The notes: generated from the letters alone by a model not told the origin. DNA of 32,000 nt from Longivirga aurantiaca (GCF_042660085.1 NZ_JBHSTI010000008.1:600001-632000); one strand, 5' to 3'; numbered from the stretch's first letter, positions 5,898-21,793 are shown. Made by a program: numbers and translations.

Positions 5898-6086
5898 ATG
5901 AGCACCGACACCACGCAGCGCGTCGAGGAGATCCTCCGACCCGTCCTCGGCGACCAGGGCGTCGTCGGCTGGCTCAACCGCCCCCGCCATCAGCTCGGCA
6001 ACCGCACGCCGCGGCAGCTCCTCGTCGACGGCGACGACGACGACAGAGTGCTCGAGATGGCGCTGCGCCTGTCCCGCACCGCCTGA
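5898..6086 (+). CDS. DUF2384 (Xre/MbcA/ParS-type antitoxin C-terminal domain)-like miniprotein
   Basis: 62 aa. WLNRPRHQLGNRTPRQLLVDGDDDDRVLEMALRL resembles the toxin-binding DUF2384 motif (W..p...LgG.tP..ll). It has GC3-rich codons. There is no HTH domain and no adjacent RES or ART toxin gene. Confidence 0.5.
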   Translation: MSTDTTQRVEEILRPVLGDQGVVGWLNRPRHQLGNRTPRQLLVDGDDDDRVLEMALRLSRTA

Positions 6087-14156: not shown

Positions 14157-14515
14157 CGCGCCTCTCCTTGGTCGTCGGCCAGTACGTCGGACATGCGGTC
14201 GAACCGGTCCCGCCAGAGCTGCTCGTACGCGTCGAGGAGCGTGCGGGCACGGCGTACCGCCTCGGGCTCACCGGTCACGCGCTGCTCCCTGCCGTGCCTG
14301 CGTCGCGACACGAGCCCCGCCGCCTCGAGGACGGCCACGTGCTTCTGCACGGCGGTCACGCTCATGGGGTAGGCCCGGGCGAGGTTGGACACCGAGTGCT
14401 CGCCGACGAGCACGCGCCGCACGATGTCGCGGCGGGTGGAGTCGGCGAGGGCGTGGAAGAGCCGGTCGACCTCGGAGTCCAAGAGCTGATCTACAACCAT
14501 AAGGTTGTAGATCAT
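14153..14515 (-). CDS. ArsR/SmtB-family winged-helix transcriptional regulator
   Basis: MIYNLMVVDQLLDSEVDRLFHALADSTRRDIVRRVLVGEHSVSNLARAYPMSVTAVQKHVAVLEAAGLVSRRRHGREQ. GGAGG lies 7 nt upstream of the ATG at 14515. An alternative start is the ATG at 14500. Confidence 0.85.
   Translation of the reverse strand: MIYNLMVVDQLLDSEVDRLFHALADSTRRDIVRRVLVGEHSVSNLARAYPMSVTAVQKHVAVLEAAGLVSRRRHGREQRVTGEPEAVRRARTLLDAYEQLWRDRFDRMSDVLADDQGEAR
14488..14513. promoter_or_regulatory. 26-bp palindrome (11-bp perfect arms) overlapping the arsR-like start codon; candidate autoregulatory operator
   Basis: GATCTACAACC-ATAA-GGTTGTAGATC. It is AT-richer than its surroundings and covers codons 1-9 of the ArsR-like ORF. 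Confidence 0.5.
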
Positions 14516-14567
14516 GCAGCACCTCCCCGGGAGCGTCAAGGCTGCCGCCGAGGCCTCGCGCACGACG

Positions 14568-14594
14568 AAGCCCCGGCCGCGGGGGCCGGGGCTT
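14568..14594. terminator. GC-rich stem-loop downstream of the 52-aa Cys-rich gene
   Basis: AAGCCCCGGCC-GCGGG-GGCCGGGGCTT, an 11-bp stem with a 5-nt loop. It lies 17 nt past the stop at 14611 on the minus strand. There is no clear U-tract. Confidence 0.4.
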
Positions 14595-14610
14595 GATCGC
14601 GCGGAGTGCG

Positions 14611-14769
14611 TCAGCGACCGAAGAGGCGGTCGACCAGGGACTTCTTCTGCTCGGGCGGGCAGGCGCAGCGCTGCGACTTCGGGACGCCGCGCATGACCTG
14701 GTCGACGTGCTGGCCGCATCCGGCCCACGTCGCCTTGCCGCAGCGTCGGCAGCTCACCTGTCGGCACAT
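14611..14769 (-). CDS. Six-cysteine miniprotein, copy 1 (52 aa), uncharacterised
   Basis: MCRQVSCRRCGKATWAGCGQHVDQVMRGVPKSQRCACPPEQKKSLVDRLFGR. An AAGGAG RBS lies 8 nt upstream. It has GC3-biased codons and a paralog at 20292-20408. It lies directly downstream of the site A palindrome. The track shows it only inside a longer 89-aa ORF. Confidence 0.6.
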   Translation of the reverse strand: MCRQVSCRRCGKATWAGCGQHVDQVMRGVPKSQRCACPPEQKKSLVDRLFGR

Positions 14770-14797
14770 GTCCTGGTCTCCTTCGTCGGGGTTCGCG

Positions 14798-14837
14798 GTA
14801 GCCATCACTATACCCCCGGGGGTATAGTGATGGCTAC
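14798..14837. promoter_or_regulatory. CsoR/CstR-family operator-like palindrome, site A (40-bp perfect; 60-bp with one mismatch pair)
   Basis: GTAGCCATCACTATACCCCC|GGGGGTATAGTGATGGCTAC is perfectly self-complementary. The flanks 14788-14797 and 14838-14847 extend the symmetry with a single mismatch pair. The core ATACCCCCGGGGGTAT is at 14810-14825. TATAGT is present on both strands as a candidate -10 element. Confidence 0.7.
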
Positions 14838-14858
14838 CACGAACCCCAGGAGGACGCC

Positions 14859-15158
14859 GTGACCGCAGGATCCGGGACACCGGCCGCCCAGCACGTCGTC
14901 GAGGACCAGAAGGCCGTGCTGGCCGTGGCCAACCGGCTCAAGCGCGCGCAGGGCCAGCTCGGCGGCGCGATCGCGATGCTCGAGGACGGCAGGTCCTGCC
15001 AGGACGTCGTCACGCTGCTCGCCGCCGTGAGCAAGGCTGTGGACCGGGCTGCGTTCCAGATGATCTCCACCAGCCTGCGCGAGTGCGTCGTGGCCGGCGA
15101 CCAGGACTCCGAGGTCGTGGCCGAGCAGCTGCAGAAGCTGTTCCTGTCCCTGGCCTGA
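14859..15158 (+). CDS. cstR: CsoR/RcnR-family repressor of the CstR (persulfide-sensing) type
   Basis: 99 aa with a GTG start and AGGAGG 5 nt upstream. LKRAQGQLGGAIAMLEDGRSCQDVVTLLAAVSKAVDRAAFQMISTSLRECV is the DUF156 fold. It has the two Cys, but Ser replaces the Cu-ligand His at Cys-4 (SLREC), as in S. aureus CstR (NLIEC) as I recall it. Confidence 0.82.
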   Translation: MTAGSGTPAAQHVVEDQKAVLAVANRLKRAQGQLGGAIAMLEDGRSCQDVVTLLAAVSKAVDRAAFQMISTSLRECVVAGDQDSEVVAEQLQKLFLSLA

Positions 15159-15184
15159 GATCGACCGCGCCGCAACCGATCTCA
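15156..15184. terminator. Weak inverted repeat between convergent cstR and methyltransferase genes
   Basis: TGAGATCG-N13-CGATCTCA, with 8-bp arms. It lies between the stops at 15158 (+) and 15199 (-). Confidence 0.3.
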
Positions 15185-15198
15185 GGCGGGACGCAGGT

Positions 15199-15813
15199 TC
15201 ACGTAGGACGTCGGGCGAGCACCACGGCGTCGAACGCGTGAGCGGGTGAGCCGGCGACCTCCACGGCTCTGGCTGCCTTGGCCGCCACCTCCACCGTCAG
15301 ACCGCTGCCCTCGAGGTCGGCGACGACGTCGTCCTCCGTGAAGAGCACGGCCGGGTCCTGCGGGCCGCCCACGCCCTCGGTCAGGTTGTCCGTGTGGTGG
15401 GCGACGACGAGCAGGGCGCCGCCGGGTGCCACCGCGGCCGCTGCGGACCGGTGCGCCCGGCGCCGGTCGTCCGCCGGGATCTGCAGGTAGCAGACGACGA
15501 CGAGGTCGAAGCCCTGGTCGCCGAGCGGATCGGCGACGACGTCGGCCTGGCGCACGTGCAGCCGCCCGAGGGGCTGCACGCGCTGGTCCCACAGGTGAGC
15601 CGCGCGCTGGAGGGCGACCGCCGAGAAGTCGGTGACGGTCGCCTCCCAGCCGCGGTCGGCGAGCCACAGCGCGTTGCGTCCTTCGCCGCCGGCGACGTCG
15701 AGCGCCCTGCCAGGGGGTAGGGCGGAGCAGTGCTGCTCGACGAACACGTTCGGACCGGTGGACCACACGCGGTCCACGGCGGCGTAGCGGGCGTCCCACT
15801 CTGCGGCTCGCAC
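15199..15813 (-). CDS. Class I SAM-dependent methyltransferase (TehB/TPMT-like)
   Basis: 204 aa with a GTG start. ALDVAGGEGRNALWLADRGWEATVTDFS (motif I plus an acidic loop) and LLVVAHH are present. It is the last gene of the sqr transcription unit, 10 nt after the 59-aa ORF. Confidence 0.8.
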   Translation of the reverse strand: MRAAEWDARYAAVDRVWSTGPNVFVEQHCSALPPGRALDVAGGEGRNALWLADRGWEATVTDFSAVALQRAAHLWDQRVQPLGRLHVRQADVVADPLGDQGFDLVVVCYLQIPADDRRRAHRSAAAAVAPGGALLVVAHHTDNLTEGVGGPQDPAVLFTEDDVVADLEGSGLTVEVAAKAARAVEVAGSPAHAFDAVVLARRPT

Positions 15814-15823
15814 GTCCGACCCC

Positions 15824-16003
15824 TCAGTGGTGCGACGTGCGGATCATCTTGAGCATGCGCAGGGACACCGCGGCGAAGCGGAATCCCTGCACCGGCAGAG
15901 ATGTGCGCTGGCGCAGCGTCTTGTCGGTGGGGGCCGGCGCCAACGTGACGGCCAGCGGCACCTCCGCCGGGGAGACGGGCTCGGTGCTCGGGTTCTCGGT
16001 CAT
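15824..16003 (-). CDS. Possible 59-aa protein between sqr and the methyltransferase
   Basis: Hand translation gives MTENPSTEPVSPAEVPLAVTLAPAPTDKTLRQRTSLPVQGFRFAAVSLRMLKMIRTSHH. It has GC3-biased codons and starts 7 nt after the sqr stop. It is below the ORF-track cutoff, and I recognise no family. Confidence 0.4.
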   Translation of the reverse strand: MTENPSTEPVSPAEVPLAVTLAPAPTDKTLRQRTSLPVQGFRFAAVSLRMLKMIRTSHH

Positions 16004-16010
16004 CGTCAGC

Positions 16011-17468
16011 TCACTCCGGGATGAAGGACCAGCCGGGCAGGCCCTTCGCCTTGTAGATGAACATGTAGTGGAGCAGGTTCTTCATCCAGTGCCCCGCGAG
16101 CCCGATCTCACCGGTGGTGTCGTCGAGGCTGCGGCCGTAGCCGGGGAAGCGGGCGTAGTCGGGGACGACGGGGTACATCGTCATCGAGGCGGCGGTGCCC
16201 TTCGTGAACCCGGCACCGGCGCTGGCGACGCAGGCTGCGCCCATGTCGGCCATCGAGGCCGTGTGCTCGGGCCTGGTCGCCTTGCCCGTCACCATGTCGG
16301 CGATGCTCTGCGCGACAGCCTTGCCCATGAGCCCCGACGGCATGCCCGTCCGCGGCGGCGCGGGCGAGATGGCCGTGCCCTTCGGGCTCGTGCGCGGTAC
16401 CGAGATCGGGTGGGGCGGGGCGAACGCGATGCCGATGCCGAAGACGTTCGCGTACTTCGGGCTCTGGTACGTGCTCGGCCAGTCCTCGGCCCTGTACTCG
16501 TCGAACTTCTTCGGCGTGTAGTCGGCGTCCACCTTGAGGAACCCGCTCGGCGCGAAGACCTCCGAGCTGATGTCGCTTCCGTCGCGCGCGAACGCCTGCA
16601 GGTCGACGCCGCGGAACGGCGGGAGCAGCATGGCGAAGTCGAAGTCGAGCACGCCGTCGACGCCGTCGAGAGTCTCGTAGTAGAGCCGGCCGTCCTCGAT
16701 CCTCGTCGGGTGCGCACGGGTGATCGAGCGGACGTCGCGCTCGACGAAGAGCGACTCCGTCCAGAGCTGGCTCGTGGTGACGAAGCCCTCCTGCTTGAAG
16801 GTCAGGCCGCCGACGCCGAAGTCGCCGAGCTCGTACTCGTTGGTGAAGTAGACGATCTCGGCGAGGTCGCGCACCCCGGCGGCGCGGAGCTCGTGCTCGA
16901 CGTTGAACGTGTACTCGAACGCCGCGCCCTCGCAGGTGCAGGTGCCGTGGCCGACGCCGATGACCAGGCGCTGCTTCTCGCCGCGCTTGAGCCTGGCGAT
17001 CACCTCGGCGAGGGCCTTGGCGGCCTCCTCGGCGTGGCCGTAGGTGCAGACGGAGTAGGTGTGGCCGTCCGGGCCGAGGCCCGGCGTCGCGCCGAAGTTG
17101 AGCTTGGGCCCGGTGGCGTTGATGACGTAGTCGTACTCGATGCGCTCGACGTGCCCGGTCTTGCCAGGGGCGGTCCACTCGATCTCGACCTTGGGCCTGT
17201 CGGACGAGTCGTCGCCCTCGGGCCACAGCGCCACGGCCTTGGCCTGGTGGTAGGTGATGCCCTTCTTCTTGTAGACCGGTGCGAGCTTGAACGTCACGTC
17301 CTCCGCCGACATCCGGCCGACCCCGACCCAGATGTTGGACGGGATCCAGTTCCAGTTCGAGTTGGGGGAGACCACCACGACCTCGTGCTGCTTGCCCAGC
17401 AGCCGCCGCAGGTGGAGGGCTGCGGTGTGGCCGGAGATCCCGGCTCCCAGGACGACGACGCGTGCCAT
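16011..17468 (-). CDS. sqr: Sulfide:quinone oxidoreductase-like FAD-dependent pyridine nucleotide-disulfide oxidoreductase
   Basis: I take the start at MARVVVLGAGISGHTAALHLRR, which has the GxGxxG FAD fold. SPNSNWNWIPSNIWVGVG is present, along with a second dinucleotide region RLVIGVGHGTCTCEGAAFEY containing a Cys pair, and NVFGIGIAFAPPH. 485 aa. It sits in a sulfide-detoxification gene context. Confidence 0.82.
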   Translation of the reverse strand: MARVVVLGAGISGHTAALHLRRLLGKQHEVVVVSPNSNWNWIPSNIWVGVGRMSAEDVTFKLAPVYKKKGITYHQAKAVALWPEGDDSSDRPKVEIEWTAPGKTGHVERIEYDYVINATGPKLNFGATPGLGPDGHTYSVCTYGHAEEAAKALAEVIARLKRGEKQRLVIGVGHGTCTCEGAAFEYTFNVEHELRAAGVRDLAEIVYFTNEYELGDFGVGGLTFKQEGFVTTSQLWTESLFVERDVRSITRAHPTRIEDGRLYYETLDGVDGVLDFDFAMLLPPFRGVDLQAFARDGSDISSEVFAPSGFLKVDADYTPKKFDEYRAEDWPSTYQSPKYANVFGIGIAFAPPHPISVPRTSPKGTAISPAPPRTGMPSGLMGKAVAQSIADMVTGKATRPEHTASMADMGAACVASAGAGFTKGTAASMTMYPVVPDYARFPGYGRSLDDTTGEIGLAGHWMKNLLHYMFIYKAKGLPGWSFIPE

Positions 17469-17530
17469 GTCTCGTGCTCCTCGACGCAGGTGGCGCAGGC
17501 TGCGTGCGCGGCTCTGCGCACGTCCCGGAC

Positions 17531-17548
17531 CATACCCCCTGGGGTATG
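17531..17548. promoter_or_regulatory. CsoR/CstR-family operator-like palindrome, site B (upstream of sqr)
   Basis: CATACCCCCTGGGGTATG, with 7-bp core arms ATACCCC/GGGGTAT around a CT centre. It lies about 70 nt upstream of the sqr ATG. On the sqr strand the promoter-proximal arm reads GGGGGTATGGT, giving a TATGGT candidate -10. Confidence 0.6.
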
Positions 17549-17681
17549 CGGTTAGGACAGCCTCAGGGATGCGCCGACCCCGTGACCTGCCGCACAACCG
17601 GTCCAGCGTCAGCGCCTGAAGACCGCACCGGAGAGGGTCGCACCCCGGTCTGGGGAACGTCGCCCGTGCAGGCCGAGCCGC

Positions 17682-18497
17682 TCAGGCGAGGACGAGCTGG
17701 GCGGTCTGGTACGCCGCGACCACGAGCAGGAGGACGCCGAAGGTCCGCTGCAGCGCCGCCGACGGGATCCGCGGCTGCAGCACCGCGCCGAGCACGGCGC
17801 CGACCGCCGTACCGACCGCGACGACGGCGGTGAGGCCGCCGTCGACGTGCTCGGTGCCGTGGGCGAGGAAGGCCACGGTCACGTTGACGAGGATCACCAC
17901 GAGAGCGGTTGCGCTCGCGCGCCGCATGGGCATCCTGAGCGCCAGCACCAGGGCCGGGACGGCGATGAAGCCGCCGCCGACGCCGAAGAACCCGGTCACG
18001 AGGCCGACACCCGACGCAAGGAGCACGACCACGGCCCAGTTGGGGTCGGGCAGTGGCTTGTCGTCGTCCTCGGGAGAGGACTCGCTGCGTCCTCGCAGCA
18101 TGCCGTACGCGGCCAGGGCGAGGAGCACCACGAAGCCGGCGAGCTGCACCCGGTCGTCCACGGCGAACGCGAGCCGCGACCCCGCGATGGCGCCCGCGGA
18201 GCCCAGCGCACCGAACATGAGCCCGATGACCCAGTCGACGCGCCCGCCGCGGGCATGGGTGGCGAGGCCGGCGGCCGCGCCGACTCCGACGACGACCAGT
18301 GAGGTCGTGGCCGCGGCGTCGAGCGACAGCCCGAGCGCCAGCAGGATCGGCACCGCGAGCACACCGCCGCCGCCTCCGAGCAGGCCCATGACGGCGCCGA
18401 GCGCGAGGCCGGCGGCGACAGGCAGCAGGAGGGGCACGGGTGGGTGACGACGCTCAGGCCACGCGGCCCGGCGCGCCCTGCGCGTCGACGACCGCAC
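17682..18497 (-). CDS. TauE/SafE-family sulfite/organosulfonate exporter
   Basis: Multi-pass membrane protein with repeated Gly-rich helices: GAVMGLLGGGGGVLAVPILL and VTGFFGVGGGFIAVPAL. The start is uncertain. GTG at 18497 overlaps the rhodanese gene by 44 nt. GTG at 18437 gives 252 aa and begins directly at TM1. Confidence 0.82.
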   Translation of the reverse strand: MRSSTRRARRAAWPERRHPPVPLLLPVAAGLALGAVMGLLGGGGGVLAVPILLALGLSLDAAATTSLVVVGVGAAAGLATHARGGRVDWVIGLMFGALGSAGAIAGSRLAFAVDDRVQLAGFVVLLALAAYGMLRGRSESSPEDDDKPLPDPNWAVVVLLASGVGLVTGFFGVGGGFIAVPALVLALRMPMRRASATALVVILVNVTVAFLAHGTEHVDGGLTAVVAVGTAVGAVLGAVLQPRIPSAALQRTFGVLLLVVAAYQTAQLVLA

Positions 18498-18798
18498 CGC
18501 CGGACGCCTGCCATGCGCCCATGCCGCCGGCGACGTTCCAGGCGTCGACCCCCAGCGCGATCAGGTGAGCGGTCGCCGACTTCGAGCGGTTGCCGCTGCG
18601 GCAGACGACGAGAACGCGCTGCCCGGGAGCAGGCGCGAACCCGCCCGACGGCAGATCGCCGAGGGGCACGTGCACGGCGGTCGGAGCGTGTCCGGCCACC
18701 CACTCGGCAGGCTCGCGGACATCGAGCAGGACTGCGCCGTCACCGACGAGGCGCAGGGCCTCCGCGGCGTCGACCGTGGGAAGGGTCTGGTTGTCCAC
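18454..18798 (-). CDS. Single-domain rhodanese (sulfurtransferase) with active-site Cys
   Basis: The GTG start is preceded by AAGGAG. VDNQTLPTVDAAEALRLVGDGAVLLDVREPAEWVAGHAP...VLVVCRSGNRSKSATAHL contains the CRxGxR[ST] catalytic loop. 114 aa. Confidence 0.85.
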   Translation of the reverse strand: MDNQTLPTVDAAEALRLVGDGAVLLDVREPAEWVAGHAPTAVHVPLGDLPSGGFAPAPGQRVLVVCRSGNRSKSATAHLIALGVDAWNVAGGMGAWQASGGAVVDAQGAPGRVA

Positions 18799-18806
18799 GT
18801 CGCTCC

Positions 18807-20258
18807 TTAGTCGGCGTACGCCGCACCGAGAGTGGCCTGCGTGACCTGCTCGGCGGGGGTCCAGGCGCGGATCACGCGCGCGGTGGCGATGTCGGCGTCC
18901 AGGTGGACGACGGTGAGGCCTGCACGATCGAGGAGCGACGCCGCGGCCGAGGCGCGGAAGCCTGAGCCGCAGTAGACCCACACCGTCGCGTCGCGACCCG
19001 CGTGAGCTGCGGCACGGGACCAGGTCACGATCTTCTCGACGCTGCCCATGAGCTCGTGCAGGGGTACGTGCCGGGCGCCGGTCACGTGGCCCTCCTGCCA
19101 CTCGGTGCGGCGCCGGGTGTCGATGACGATCAGATCGGGATCGGCGGCGAGGGCCTCGTCGAGCTCGTGGAACTCGGCCCTGCGGTACGACGTGACGTCG
19201 GACGGCGCGAGCGCCCAGTCGCCGGGCTCGCCGTCGTTGAAGGCGGCCGGGCGGTCGATCCCGATCCGGGCGAGCTCGCGCTGCATGGCGGTCACGCGCT
19301 CCGGCGTGTCGCCCAGCAGGGTCAGAGGTGTGCCCCACGGGATCAGCCACCCGAGGTAGGTGACGGCGTTGCCGTCGCCGTCGAAGGAGAGGGTGCCGCG
19401 CAGGTGGCCCTCGGCGAAGACCCGACGTGAGCGCAGGTCGACGACCCACTCGCCGGCGTCCATGCGTCGCCGCAGCTCGGCGGCTTCGGCCCGCTCGGGC
19501 AGGGACAGGTCGATCGGGCCGGGGCCCGCCTGGTTGGCCGGTCCCATGTGCGCGTAGTACGCCGGGTAGGCGTCGAGGCCCGCGATCAGCTCGGCGACGA
19601 ACTCGTCCTCGTCGACCGTGCAGGCCGGGTTGGCCACGGCCTGCTGGCCGATGGTCGACTCGAGCCCGACGGTCGCGCTGGCGCTGCAGAACGAGCCGAA
19701 GCCGTGGGTCGGGAACACGGCGGCGTCGGGCTCGACCTCGGTCGTCAGGCGTCGGACGCTGCGCCACTGCGCGTGCGCGAGTTCGTGCGTGTGGTCCGGG
19801 CCGATGAGGTCGGGACGTCCGACGCTGCCGAACAGCAGCGAGCCGCCGGTGAACGCCGCGGCGTCCTTGCCGTCGACCGCGACGACGTACGAGAGGTGCT
19901 GCGGGGTGTGCCCAGGAGTGTGCACTGTGCGCCAGGCCATCCGCCCGCTCGTGAAGGTCTCACCGTCGCCGAGCTGGGTCGCGTCGTAGTCGAGCGCATA
20001 GCCCGTGGGGACGACGTACACGGCGCCGAGCTGTCGGGCGAGGACGAGTCCGCCCGACACGTAGTCGTTGTGGATGTGGGTCTCCACGACATGCGTCACG
20101 GTGAGCCCGTGCTCGGCGAGCACCGCCTCGACCCGGTCGAGGTCGCGCTGCGGGTCGACGACGACGGCGAGGCCGTCGAGGTGGACCACGTACGAGCGGT
20201 CACCGAGGTTCGGCGTCTCGATGACGACGACGTCGGGCAGGGCGGGCGCCGGGTGCAT
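18807..20258 (-). CDS. cstB: CstB-like persulfide dioxygenase (MBL fold) fused to a pseudo-rhodanese and a catalytic rhodanese domain
   Basis: 483 aa. The MBL motif is THIHNDYVSGG (H-x-H-x-D-Y rather than HxHxDH). HTPGHTP is present. The middle rhodanese-like domain lacks the Cys (LLGDTPE). The C-terminal rhodanese has VWVYCGSGFRAS. This is the same three-domain order as S. aureus CstB. Confidence 0.85.
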   Translation of the reverse strand: MHPAPALPDVVVIETPNLGDRSYVVHLDGLAVVVDPQRDLDRVEAVLAEHGLTVTHVVETHIHNDYVSGGLVLARQLGAVYVVPTGYALDYDATQLGDGETFTSGRMAWRTVHTPGHTPQHLSYVVAVDGKDAAAFTGGSLLFGSVGRPDLIGPDHTHELAHAQWRSVRRLTTEVEPDAAVFPTHGFGSFCSASATVGLESTIGQQAVANPACTVDEDEFVAELIAGLDAYPAYYAHMGPANQAGPGPIDLSLPERAEAAELRRRMDAGEWVVDLRSRRVFAEGHLRGTLSFDGDGNAVTYLGWLIPWGTPLTLLGDTPERVTAMQRELARIGIDRPAAFNDGEPGDWALAPSDVTSYRRAEFHELDEALAADPDLIVIDTRRRTEWQEGHVTGARHVPLHELMGSVEKIVTWSRAAAHAGRDATVWVYCGSGFRASAAASLLDRAGLTVVHLDADIATARVIRAWTPAEQVTQATLGAAYAD

Positions 20259-20291
20259 GAGGTCTCGTCTCGTCTCGTGGGGCAGGGAGGG

Positions 20292-20408
20292 TCAGCGGCA
20301 GGTGCAGCGGCGGTCGGTCGACACGTCGGCCATGACGAGATCGACGTGCATGCCGCAGCCGGACCAGGTGACCTTGCCGCAGCGGGAGCAGGTGGCGGGG
20401 CTGCACAT
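20292..20408 (-). CDS. Six-cysteine miniprotein, copy 2 (38 aa), uncharacterised; first ORF of the cstB-like operon
   Basis: MCSPATCSRCGKVTWSGCGMHVDLVMADVSTDRRCTCR. GGAGGA lies 6 nt upstream. The Cys and His positions are identical to copy 1. It is below the ORF-track cutoff as a stand-alone gene and is visible only as the C-terminal end of a 168-aa junk-prefixed ORF. Confidence 0.55.
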   Translation of the reverse strand: MCSPATCSRCGKVTWSGCGMHVDLVMADVSTDRRCTCR

Positions 20409-20463
20409 GGGGGTTCCTCCACGAGGTGTCGGGGCGCGAGGAGCGCCGGTGATGGCTCGAGAG

Positions 20464-20481
20464 TATACCCCCGGGGGTATC
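20464..20481. promoter_or_regulatory. CsoR/CstR-family operator-like palindrome, site C (upstream of miniprotein 2 and the cstB-like operon)
   Basis: The 16-bp perfect palindrome ATACCCCCGGGGGTAT lies at 20465-20480. On the minus strand it reads GGGGGTATACT, giving a TATACT candidate -10. Its centre is about 64 nt upstream of the ATG at 20408. Confidence 0.6.
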
Positions 20482-20527
20482 CGATCAAGTCGGGTCCGGG
20501 CCGCCCCGGGTGGGCTCGGGGTGGGGC

Positions 20528-21793
20528 TCATCGGAGCAGGTACCGGTCGACGAAGGCGTTCCCGAAGACGCCCCCGGGGTCGAGCCGGGCACGCAGGTCC
20601 TCGAACTCGCGACGGCGCGGGTAGAGCGAGCGGACGACGTCGGGGTCGGTCGTGAAGACCTTCCCCCAGTGCGGCCGGGCGTCGTACGGCGCGAGCCCGC
20701 GCTCGACTGCGAGGACGGCGGGTGCGACGGCCTCGGCGTCGTCGACCCAGGTGAAGTGGATGCAGACCGTGTCGCGTCCCTGGCACGGGCTGAGCCACAG
20801 GTCGTCGCCCGCCACGGTGCGGACCTCGCTGATCTGGAGCACCGGCGCGACCAGGTGGGCGACGCGCTGCACGGCTTCAAGTGCCTCGCGCGCAACGGAT
20901 CTCGGCACCATGTACTCGGTCTGCAGCTCCGCGCCGGCGCTCGGCGTGAACTCGAGCCGGAAGTGCGGGAGCCGTTCGAACCACGGGCCCGGGACTCCGC
21001 CCTGCTCGGTGCACGCGTCAGCCGCCACGCCGGGCACCGGGTGGCGCGGCGCGTCGGCCGGACGCGACCCGGTCCACCCGAGGTCGGCAGGGTCGCCCCC
21101 GGCTCGTCGCTTCACCCAGACCTGCTCGAACCCGTGCCCGGTCCAGGTGGTGAAGAGGCTCACGCTGTACGCCGCACCCATGACGTCGTCGAAGCGCTCG
21201 ACGGCAGTGCCGAAGGGCAGCCCCTCCCACACCGTCTGCTCCACGTCGTACGACGGCTCGAGGTCGAGGGTCATCGACGTGACGATGCCGAGCGCACCGA
21301 GGGCCACCACGCTGCCGTCGAAGTCTGCGTCGCCCCGCTGGAGGGTGTGCAGCGAGCCGTCGGCGGTGACGAGGTCGAGCGACCTGACGGCGGTGGCGAG
21401 GCAGCCGAGGCCGCTGCCCGACCCGTGCGTGCCGGTGGACGCCGAGCCCGCGACGGAGATGTGCGGCAGCGACCCCATGTTGTGCAGCGCGAGCCCGTGC
21501 GCGTCGACCAGCGGGGCGAGCTCGCCCCAGCGGGTGCCCGCGCTCACCCGTGCCGTGGACGCGACGGCGTCGACCTCGAGCACCCGCGGGAGCGAGTCGA
21601 GGAGCACGAGGGTGCCGTCCGTGTCGGCGACCGGGGAGAACGAGTGCCCGGTGCCCAGGGCACGAACGCGCGCGGTGGAGGCGACGACGTCCCGCAGCTC
21701 GTCGACGGACCGCGGCCGCACGGCGCGCTCCGGCGCGAACGTGACGTTGCGCGCCCAGTTCTGCAGCGGCGCGTCGTACGTCGGTGTCGTCAC
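20528..21793 (-). CDS. FAD-linked oxidoreductase of the alditol oxidase / D-arabinono-1,4-lactone oxidase family
   Basis: 421 aa with a GTG start. NWARNVTFAPERAVRPRSVDELRDVV, RALGTGHSFS (the covalent-FAD His region), HNMGSLPHISVAGSASTGTHGSG, and the ALO C-terminal domain RPHWGKVF...FGNAFVDRYL. Confidence 0.85.
   Translation of the reverse strand: MTTPTYDAPLQNWARNVTFAPERAVRPRSVDELRDVVASTARVRALGTGHSFSPVADTDGTLVLLDSLPRVLEVDAVASTARVSAGTRWGELAPLVDAHGLALHNMGSLPHISVAGSASTGTHGSGSGLGCLATAVRSLDLVTADGSLHTLQRGDADFDGSVVALGALGIVTSMTLDLEPSYDVEQTVWEGLPFGTAVERFDDVMGAAYSVSLFTTWTGHGFEQVWVKRRAGGDPADLGWTGSRPADAPRHPVPGVAADACTEQGGVPGPWFERLPHFRLEFTPSAGAELQTEYMVPRSVAREALEAVQRVAHLVAPVLQISEVRTVAGDDLWLSPCQGRDTVCIHFTWVDDAEAVAPAVLAVERGLAPYDARPHWGKVFTTDPDVVRSLYPRRREFEDLRARLDPGGVFGNAFVDRYLLR

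Follow-up and report, generated by a model that had tools for sequence, protein, structure and literature searches.

A predicted CstR-type persulfide regulon in Longivirga aurantiaca with operator arms proposed as -10 boxes

A gene cluster of Longivirga aurantiaca that encodes sulfide- and persulfide-handling enzymes contains three copies of a 16-bp palindrome, and three further sites of this kind occur elsewhere in the genome. The cluster is located within a stretch of 32,000 nucleotides (GCF_042660085.1 NZ_JBHSTI010000008.1:600001-632000), hereafter called the window. On the sequence evidence below, we consider it about 80% probable that the actinobacterial persulfide-sensing branch of the CsoR repressor family (CstR type, as ScCsoR of Streptomyces coelicolor) uses these palindromes as operators, with arms that serve as -10 boxes. 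The window contains the following sites, named for the transcription units that they precede:

Operator A, 14810-14825, no strand: exact match to ATACC-N6-GGTAT, with the dyad TAC-X8-GTA; common to the divergent promoters of miniprotein 1 and the regulator gene cstR1.
Operator B, 17532-17547, no strand: exact match; upstream of sqr, with no gene on the side of the distal arm.
Operator C, 20465-20480, no strand: exact match; upstream of miniprotein 2, with no gene starting on the side of the distal arm.

A pattern search of the whole window found the 16-mer ATACCCCC(G/T)GGGGTAT exactly three times, each time upstream of a sulfur-gene transcription unit, as an earlier sequence-only reading of this DNA had claimed. 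The matches to ATACCCCCKGGGGTAT are the same three sites; 0.06 matches were expected (mean of 100 dinucleotide-preserving shuffles), and none of the 100 shuffles contained as many. No further copy of the 16-mer is present in the window when up to three mismatches are allowed. At the same threshold, no window promoter has a second operator, which is the arrangement at pdo in S. coelicolor. An AT-ended palindrome is conspicuous here because the window is 72% G+C. The sites have the form of CsoR-family type-2 operators, in agreement with the operator style that the sequence-only reading assigned to them, and match the sequence bound by ScCsoR (ATACCn6GGTAT), a repressor that polysulfide releases via Cys37 and Cys66 (Lu et al. 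2020, PMC7533328).

The regulator encoded beside operator A has the residues of a persulfide sensor. The cstR1 product matches PF02583 (CsoR/DUF156) with 68.7 bits (cut-off 22.8) and carries C47, S72 and C76. This is the x-C-x-C pattern, with the Cys residues 29 apart, and the Cys-His-Cys (C-H-C) ligand set of Cu(I)-sensing CsoR is broken by Ser in the position of the His ligand. Its best match in the PDB is 7MQ1, the persulfide sensor CstR of S. pneumoniae (SpCstR). These residues and this closest solved relative support the proposed reading of the regulator as a persulfide-type protein and not a copper-type one. Actinomycete x-C-x-C proteins, including ScCsoR and Rv1766, form cluster 3 of a sequence similarity network (SSN) and are candidate persulfide sensors (PMC8643695).

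For comparison, a set of 80 loci that encode a homologue of the miniproteins was assembled. In 49 of the 80, a CstR-like gene occurs at most 6 kb from the miniprotein gene, together with homologues of persulfide dioxygenase (PDO), CoA-disulfide reductase (CoADR), thioredoxin, rhodanese and TauE. In the 49 CstR-like homologues from other genomes, both Cys residues are invariant, the C-terminal KLFLSLA is conserved, and the position equivalent to S72 is occupied by G (24), A (20), T (3) or S (2), never by His. Likewise, genes for SQR-like, metallo-beta-lactamase (MBL)+rhodanese, rhodanese and TauE proteins are all found within 6 kb of cstR1 in the window. Gene calls, checked by codon-position GC and by Pfam and NCBIfam profiles, are as follows:

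14611-14769, minus strand: miniprotein 1, 52 amino acids (aa), Cys/His-rich; frame with a ribosome-binding site.
14859-15158, plus strand: cstR (cstR1), CsoR-family repressor.
15199-15813, minus strand: class I S-adenosylmethionine methyltransferase, TehB/TPMT-like (Pfam Methyltransf_25/11, TehB); GC at third codon positions (GC3) 0.90; last gene of the sqr unit.
15824-16003, minus strand: open reading frame (ORF) of 59 aa directly downstream of sqr; GC3 0.93.
16011-17468, minus strand: sqr, a sulfide:quinone-oxidoreductase (SQR)-like flavoprotein of 485 aa (Pyr_redox_2), with a weak match to the type III SQR model.
17682 to about 18497, minus strand: TauE/SafE sulfite exporter (PF01925, 165 bits); start candidates at 18497, 18437 and 18389.
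18454-18798, minus strand: single-domain rhodanese (PF00581); GTG start at 18798 after AAGGAG.
18807-20258, minus strand: MBL-fold+rhodanese fusion (Lactamase_B and Rhodanese), similar to CstB and type III PDO.
20292-20408, minus strand: miniprotein 2, 38 aa, first gene of the PDO unit; aligns with the miniprotein family.

The unit behind site C runs in the order miniprotein 2, MBL+rhodanese fusion, rhodanese and TauE, and the sqr unit is closely packed, with gaps of 7 nt to the 59-aa ORF and then 10 nt to the methyltransferase. The proposed assignment of site A to miniprotein 1 and cstR, site B to the sqr unit and site C to the miniprotein 2-PDO-rhodanese-tauE unit stands, and all three units contain sulfide or persulfide genes. 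An alternative methyltransferase frame at 15182 was rejected on the codon-position GC and Pfam checks. In four other loci (L010, L014, L062 and L087), a homologue of the 59-aa ORF immediately follows SQR; this ORF is probably a real, unnamed partner of SQR. Miniprotein 1 matches no Pfam or NCBIfam family, and its 306 homologues are all named hypothetical. The miniprotein alignment shows C2, C7, C10, W15, C18, H21 and C35 to be invariant, and miniprotein 2 is the only other copy in the genome.

The second part of the interpretation is that the operator arm nearest to the gene forms part of the promoter. The sequence-only reading gave the transcribed-strand arms as GGGGGTATAGT, GGGGGTATGGT and GGGGGTATACT, which re-reading of the DNA shows to be correct. 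The hexamers in question are:

14823-14828, plus strand: TATAGT, proposed -10 of the cstR1 promoter; -35-like TAGCCA at 14799-14804 with an 18-nt spacer; GTG 30 nt downstream; from the sigma-70 scan.
14807-14812, minus strand: TATAGT, proposed -10 of the miniprotein 1 promoter; -35-like TAGCCA at 14831-14836; ATG 37 nt downstream; from the promoter scan.
17529-17534, minus strand: TATGGT, proximal arm of site B and candidate -10; 60 nt before the sqr ATG.
20462-20467, minus strand: TATACT, proximal arm of site C and candidate -10; 53 nt before the miniprotein 2 ATG.

All four transcribed arms in the window read TAnnnT, compared with neither of the two non-transcribed arms (TATGCG at B, TATCCG at C). 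A scan for the sigma-70 consensus over 14400-20700 (6.3 kb) returned three matches against 0.2 expected; two of these are formed by TAGCCA-18-TATAGT, one on each strand of site A.

The same asymmetry is found in the related loci. Of 79 miniprotein genes, 44 have an operator no more than 250 nt upstream, which in most cases begins 50-65 nt ahead of the ATG. Among 45 non-redundant miniprotein promoters, the third base past the operator is T in 32, compared with 15 at the mirrored upstream position, and the first base past it is A in 28, compared with 14 upstream. We extended the comparison to 108 distinct perfect sites in the miniprotein loci and measured how far downstream of the arm hexamer TATnnn the first credible start codon lies. 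Start codons show a sharp peak 6-7 nt past the hexamer (16 sites, 11 of them at exactly 7 nt), where 13 of the 16 hexamers end in T, and a second, broad peak at 31-50 nt. T at position 6 of the hexamer is found in 52% of arms with a downstream gene versus 33% of those without (Fisher p=0.015). A distance of 6-7 nt between hexamer and start codon is the geometry of leaderless actinobacterial genes. In this geometry the start codon must be the transcription start, and the arm would therefore be fixed as the -10 element. For example, in three loci from metagenome-assembled genomes (L052 1127, L060 3112, L074 4647), the miniprotein gene is leaderless, with the arm hexamer, exactly 7 nt and then ATG, and no Shine-Dalgarno sequence. 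The proposal that the arm doubles as a -10 box is hence backed by comparative geometry and, independently, by the promoter scan at site A.

The regulon is predicted to extend beyond the window. A genome scan recovered six sites with a C/G-rich core, of which five match ATACC-N6-GGTAT perfectly and the sixth has a single mismatch, whereas the reversed pattern, used as a control, gave one match in the genome even at one mismatch. All six sites are upstream of sulfur genes as judged by Pfam. The three outside the window are:

Site D: upstream of genes for thioredoxin, a rhodanese lipoprotein and a 160-aa membrane protein.
Site E: between a divergent major facilitator superfamily (MFS) gene and a CoADR/rhodanese-cstR2-rhodanese operon.
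Site F: upstream of a second SQR-like gene, DsrC/TusE and a DsrE-like gene.

The description of the regulon as compact, with three copies, consequently has to be dropped: half of the sites are at distant sulfur loci. Family-wide, there are 0-8 such sites per genome, with a total of 50 against one control match. In many genera, homologous genes are preceded by this 16-bp core within differing flanks; in 822 kb there are 146 sites, compared with two control matches. A degenerate site, ATACCCCCCAGGGTGT at C8:1978236-1978251, lies across a gene end, 1.8 kb upstream of site D, and a malic-enzyme gene follows after 58 nt. The GTA dyad of this site is broken, and we set it aside as chance or decayed, probably non-functional. 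Matches at C2:58483, C8:305355 and C8:1383926 have no G/C core and were treated as chance.

These sites differ from those of the copper-sensing paralog by one base of spacing. Operators of Cu(I)-CsoR have the form TAC-X9-GTA (Tan et al. 2014, PMC3902906), and in the sulfur sites of this genome, with TAC-X8-GTA, the copper half-sites stand one base closer together. The genome encodes a canonical C-H-C CsoR on contig C18, followed by copZ and copA. Of its three TACC-N7-GGTA (X9) matches, only two have a G/C-rich core: one is located about 30 nt before the csoR ATG, upstream of csoR-copZ-copA, and the other precedes a DUF4396 gene. Among 30 C-H-C CsoR genes of the same order, a G/C-rich TAC-X9-GTA is found upstream of 24, and none of the 30 has an upstream site with X8 or any other spacing from X6 to X11. 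The miniprotein and CstR loci, in turn, contain 109 N6, 13 N5 and two N7 sites, and both kinds of site (X8 and X9) are found in eight genomes. The one-base difference in spacing plausibly prevents cross-talk between the copper and sulfur regulons of these paralogous repressors. In a more general model, to which we give even odds, CsoR and CstR of Actinomycetota read the same half-sites and are separated by X9 and X8 spacing, and the X8 arm supplies the TAT of the -10 box, in many cases for a leaderless gene; operator plus promoter would in that case form one evolvable module of about 19 bp that could recruit any gene into the sulfur regulon.

Taken together, the following mechanism is proposed. 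Reduced repressor tetramers would occupy TAC-X8-GTA; in studied relatives, two tetramers are bound per site. The proximal arm (G)TAT and the next three bases would constitute the sigma-A -10 hexamer TATnnT, so that bound repressor would exclude RNA polymerase. Sulfane sulfur would modify or cross-link C47 and C76, and the repressor would leave the DNA. Four units of the window would be released as a result: miniprotein 1; cstR1; sqr, the 59-aa ORF and the methyltransferase; and miniprotein 2, the PDO/rhodanese, the rhodanese and tauE. The three further sites would drive the thioredoxin-rhodanese lipoprotein-membrane protein genes, the CoADR/rhodanese-cstR2-rhodanese operon with the divergent MFS gene, and the SQR-like-DsrC-DsrE genes.

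Several observations weigh against parts of this mechanism, beginning with the choice of repressor. The genome contains three CsoR-family genes, i.e. cstR1, cstR2 and the canonical csoR. The product of cstR2 (in the CoADR-rhodanese operon, G000:C8:2.3257 Mb) is 49% identical to CstR1, with both Cys residues and the same KLFLSLA C-terminus, and its operon is behind a site with the core of site B. Because this paralog sits behind one further site, the window regulator cannot be assumed to be the sole actor on its sites. Two CstR-like paralogs share one operator core, which makes the assignment of the sites to CstR1 provisional, and both may act on all six. It is a real possibility, if not a probable one, that CstR2 mainly or jointly controls the window sites, with CstR1 as its partner, a heterotetramer subunit or a sensor of another range of inducers. 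Two CstR-like genes within 12 kb are also present in other genomes (e.g. locus L030). On the other hand, cstR1 is divergent from site A inside the cluster, the classical autoregulated layout of ScCsoR, and comparison of the six site flanks revealed neither two site classes nor any pattern separating CstR1 from CstR2 sites.

The role of the arm also has to be weighed. Neither inspection nor the promoter scan found a convincing -35 hexamer at sites B and C, and at 60 and 53 nt before the start codons another promoter may be present there. Site E reads TATAAC on both arms, without T at position 6. Even where no gene was detected beside the arm, T6 reaches 33%, so the operator itself, and not the promoter, may account for some of the flank preference. 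In addition, a 15-bp operator variant in Microbacteriaceae (Agromyces and Leifsonia) lies between a perfect TTGACA and a separate -10, so the arm does not serve as -10 throughout the family. Such findings would fit promoters located elsewhere, with the repressor acting as a roadblock or within the -35/-10 spacer and the arm TAnnnT reflecting a flank preference of the operator. We judge this unlikely given the sharp start-codon peak in the 16 related N6 sites, with no peak where a downstream -10 would predict one, the asymmetry of proximal and distal arms, and the symmetric -35/-10 prediction at site A. In the ScCsoR circuit, moreover, bsII lies at -9 of the mapped pdo start; the other site is at -48 (PMC7533328). 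It is very improbable that the canonical Cu(I)-CsoR binds the sites and that the genes respond to copper: although the half-sites ATACCCC/GGGGTAT are identical to those of Cu-CsoR operators, Cu-CsoR sites are X9 and never X8 in this genome and the 24 relatives, X8 sites front sulfur genes only and G/C-rich X9 sites copper genes, and the adjacent regulator has no His. Structural or mobile repeats with no regulator, such as cruciforms, terminators or repetitive extragenic palindromic (REP)-like elements, are hardly credible. Site A is centred in a perfect 42-bp palindrome (14797-14838), or 60 bp (14788-14847) with one mismatch pair, and a 41-bp palindrome surrounds the copper site at C8:241083; however, the conservation of the 16-bp core before homologous genes across genera with differing flanks, and its match to an experimentally defined operator, speak for CsoR-family operators.

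The closest studied system is the ScCsoR circuit of S. coelicolor, in which the repressor (SCO0620) represses a PDO-rhodanese fusion (SCO0618), TauE, a rhodanese (SCO0621) and itself (PMC7533328). The window system shares with it a two-Cys, His-less CsoR-family repressor, the 16-bp ATACC-N6-GGTAT operator, the divergent autoregulated promoter layout, and PDO-rhodanese (of the ScPDO SCO0618 architecture), TauE and rhodanese cargo (PMC7533328). By every sequence-level criterion it is of the known ScCsoR kind. It differs in its additional cargo (SQR, the methyltransferase, two Cys-rich miniproteins, thioredoxin, CoADR-rhodanese and DsrC/DsrE), in having six single sites instead of a double site at pdo, in its two CstR-like paralogs and in Ser at the position of the His ligand (the Y position).

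More distant similarities connect the system to the cst operon of S. aureus (cstR, tauE, cstA, cstB, sqr) and to the CstR-controlled coaP-rhd operons of streptococci and enterococci. Shared features are the x-C-x-C pair 29 residues apart, type-2 operators with TAC/GTA dyads, and the cargo: SQR, a CstB-like PDO-rhodanese, TauE, rhodaneses and a CoA-persulfide-reductase-like enzyme. In contrast to these systems, the regulator here belongs to the actinomycete SSN cluster 3 and not to clusters 4 or 10, and CstA is absent here (Fakhoury et al. 2021, PMC8643695). The S. mitis cst operator is TAC-X9-GTA (PMC8643695), compared with X8 here. The Cu(I)-CsoR proteins of S. lividans and M. tuberculosis share the fold, the half-sites with G/C tracts and the TAC/GTA dyads (PMC3902906), but differ from the window system in having the His ligand, X9 spacing and copper rather than sulfur genes behind their operators.

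The analysis outlines a predicted genome-wide reactive-sulfur regulon in an uncultured-type actinomycete, with six operators, about eighteen genes and two sensors. It would place the unnamed Cys-rich miniproteins firmly among the core targets. In addition, it adds two testable rules to a known system, namely that one base of spacing distinguishes copper from sulfur operators and that the arm acts as the -10 box, even for leaderless genes with a start codon 6-7 nt further on. Both rules would aid the prediction of regulons from sequence for approximately 3,000 uncharacterised cluster-3 proteins.

Some further observations concern the operators and their surroundings. The 15-bp variant, ATACC-N5-GGTAT, is often tandem in the Agromyces and Leifsonia loci (L022 4049-4100, L026 4094, L029 4167-4203, L034 4049-4085, L068 4073-4109). 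Two copies flank the perfect TTGACA, and the start of a leaderless CoADR-like gene follows 6 nt after the separate -10 (TACCGT, TACGAT and similar); operator and promoter are arranged differently here, although the family is the same. The DUF4396 membrane protein behind the second X9 operator (L093:226-753; G000:C8:241126-241653) has a His-rich tail with four C-terminal SAHDDH repeats, and its gene is likely a member of the Cu-CsoR regulon.

Long perfect palindromes surround operators of both CsoR-family branches, namely the 42 bp at site A and the 41 bp at the copper X9 site (G000:C8:241063-241103, L093), and operators of the closest relatives (L010 and L011, near position 5940) also lie in palindromes of this kind. 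Their outer arms are wholly different between sites and relatives, yet covarying changes keep the symmetry intact; there is no obvious explanation in a -35 box or in known repressor contacts. Finally, the window contains just three copies of the 9-mer GTGATGGCT, against 0.12 expected (14800-14808 on the minus strand, 14827-14835 and 20449-20457 on the plus strand), and every copy flanks operator A or C. It is present in opposite orientations in the predicted 5' leaders of both miniprotein mRNAs; therefore, the two leaders would be complementary over 9 nt.

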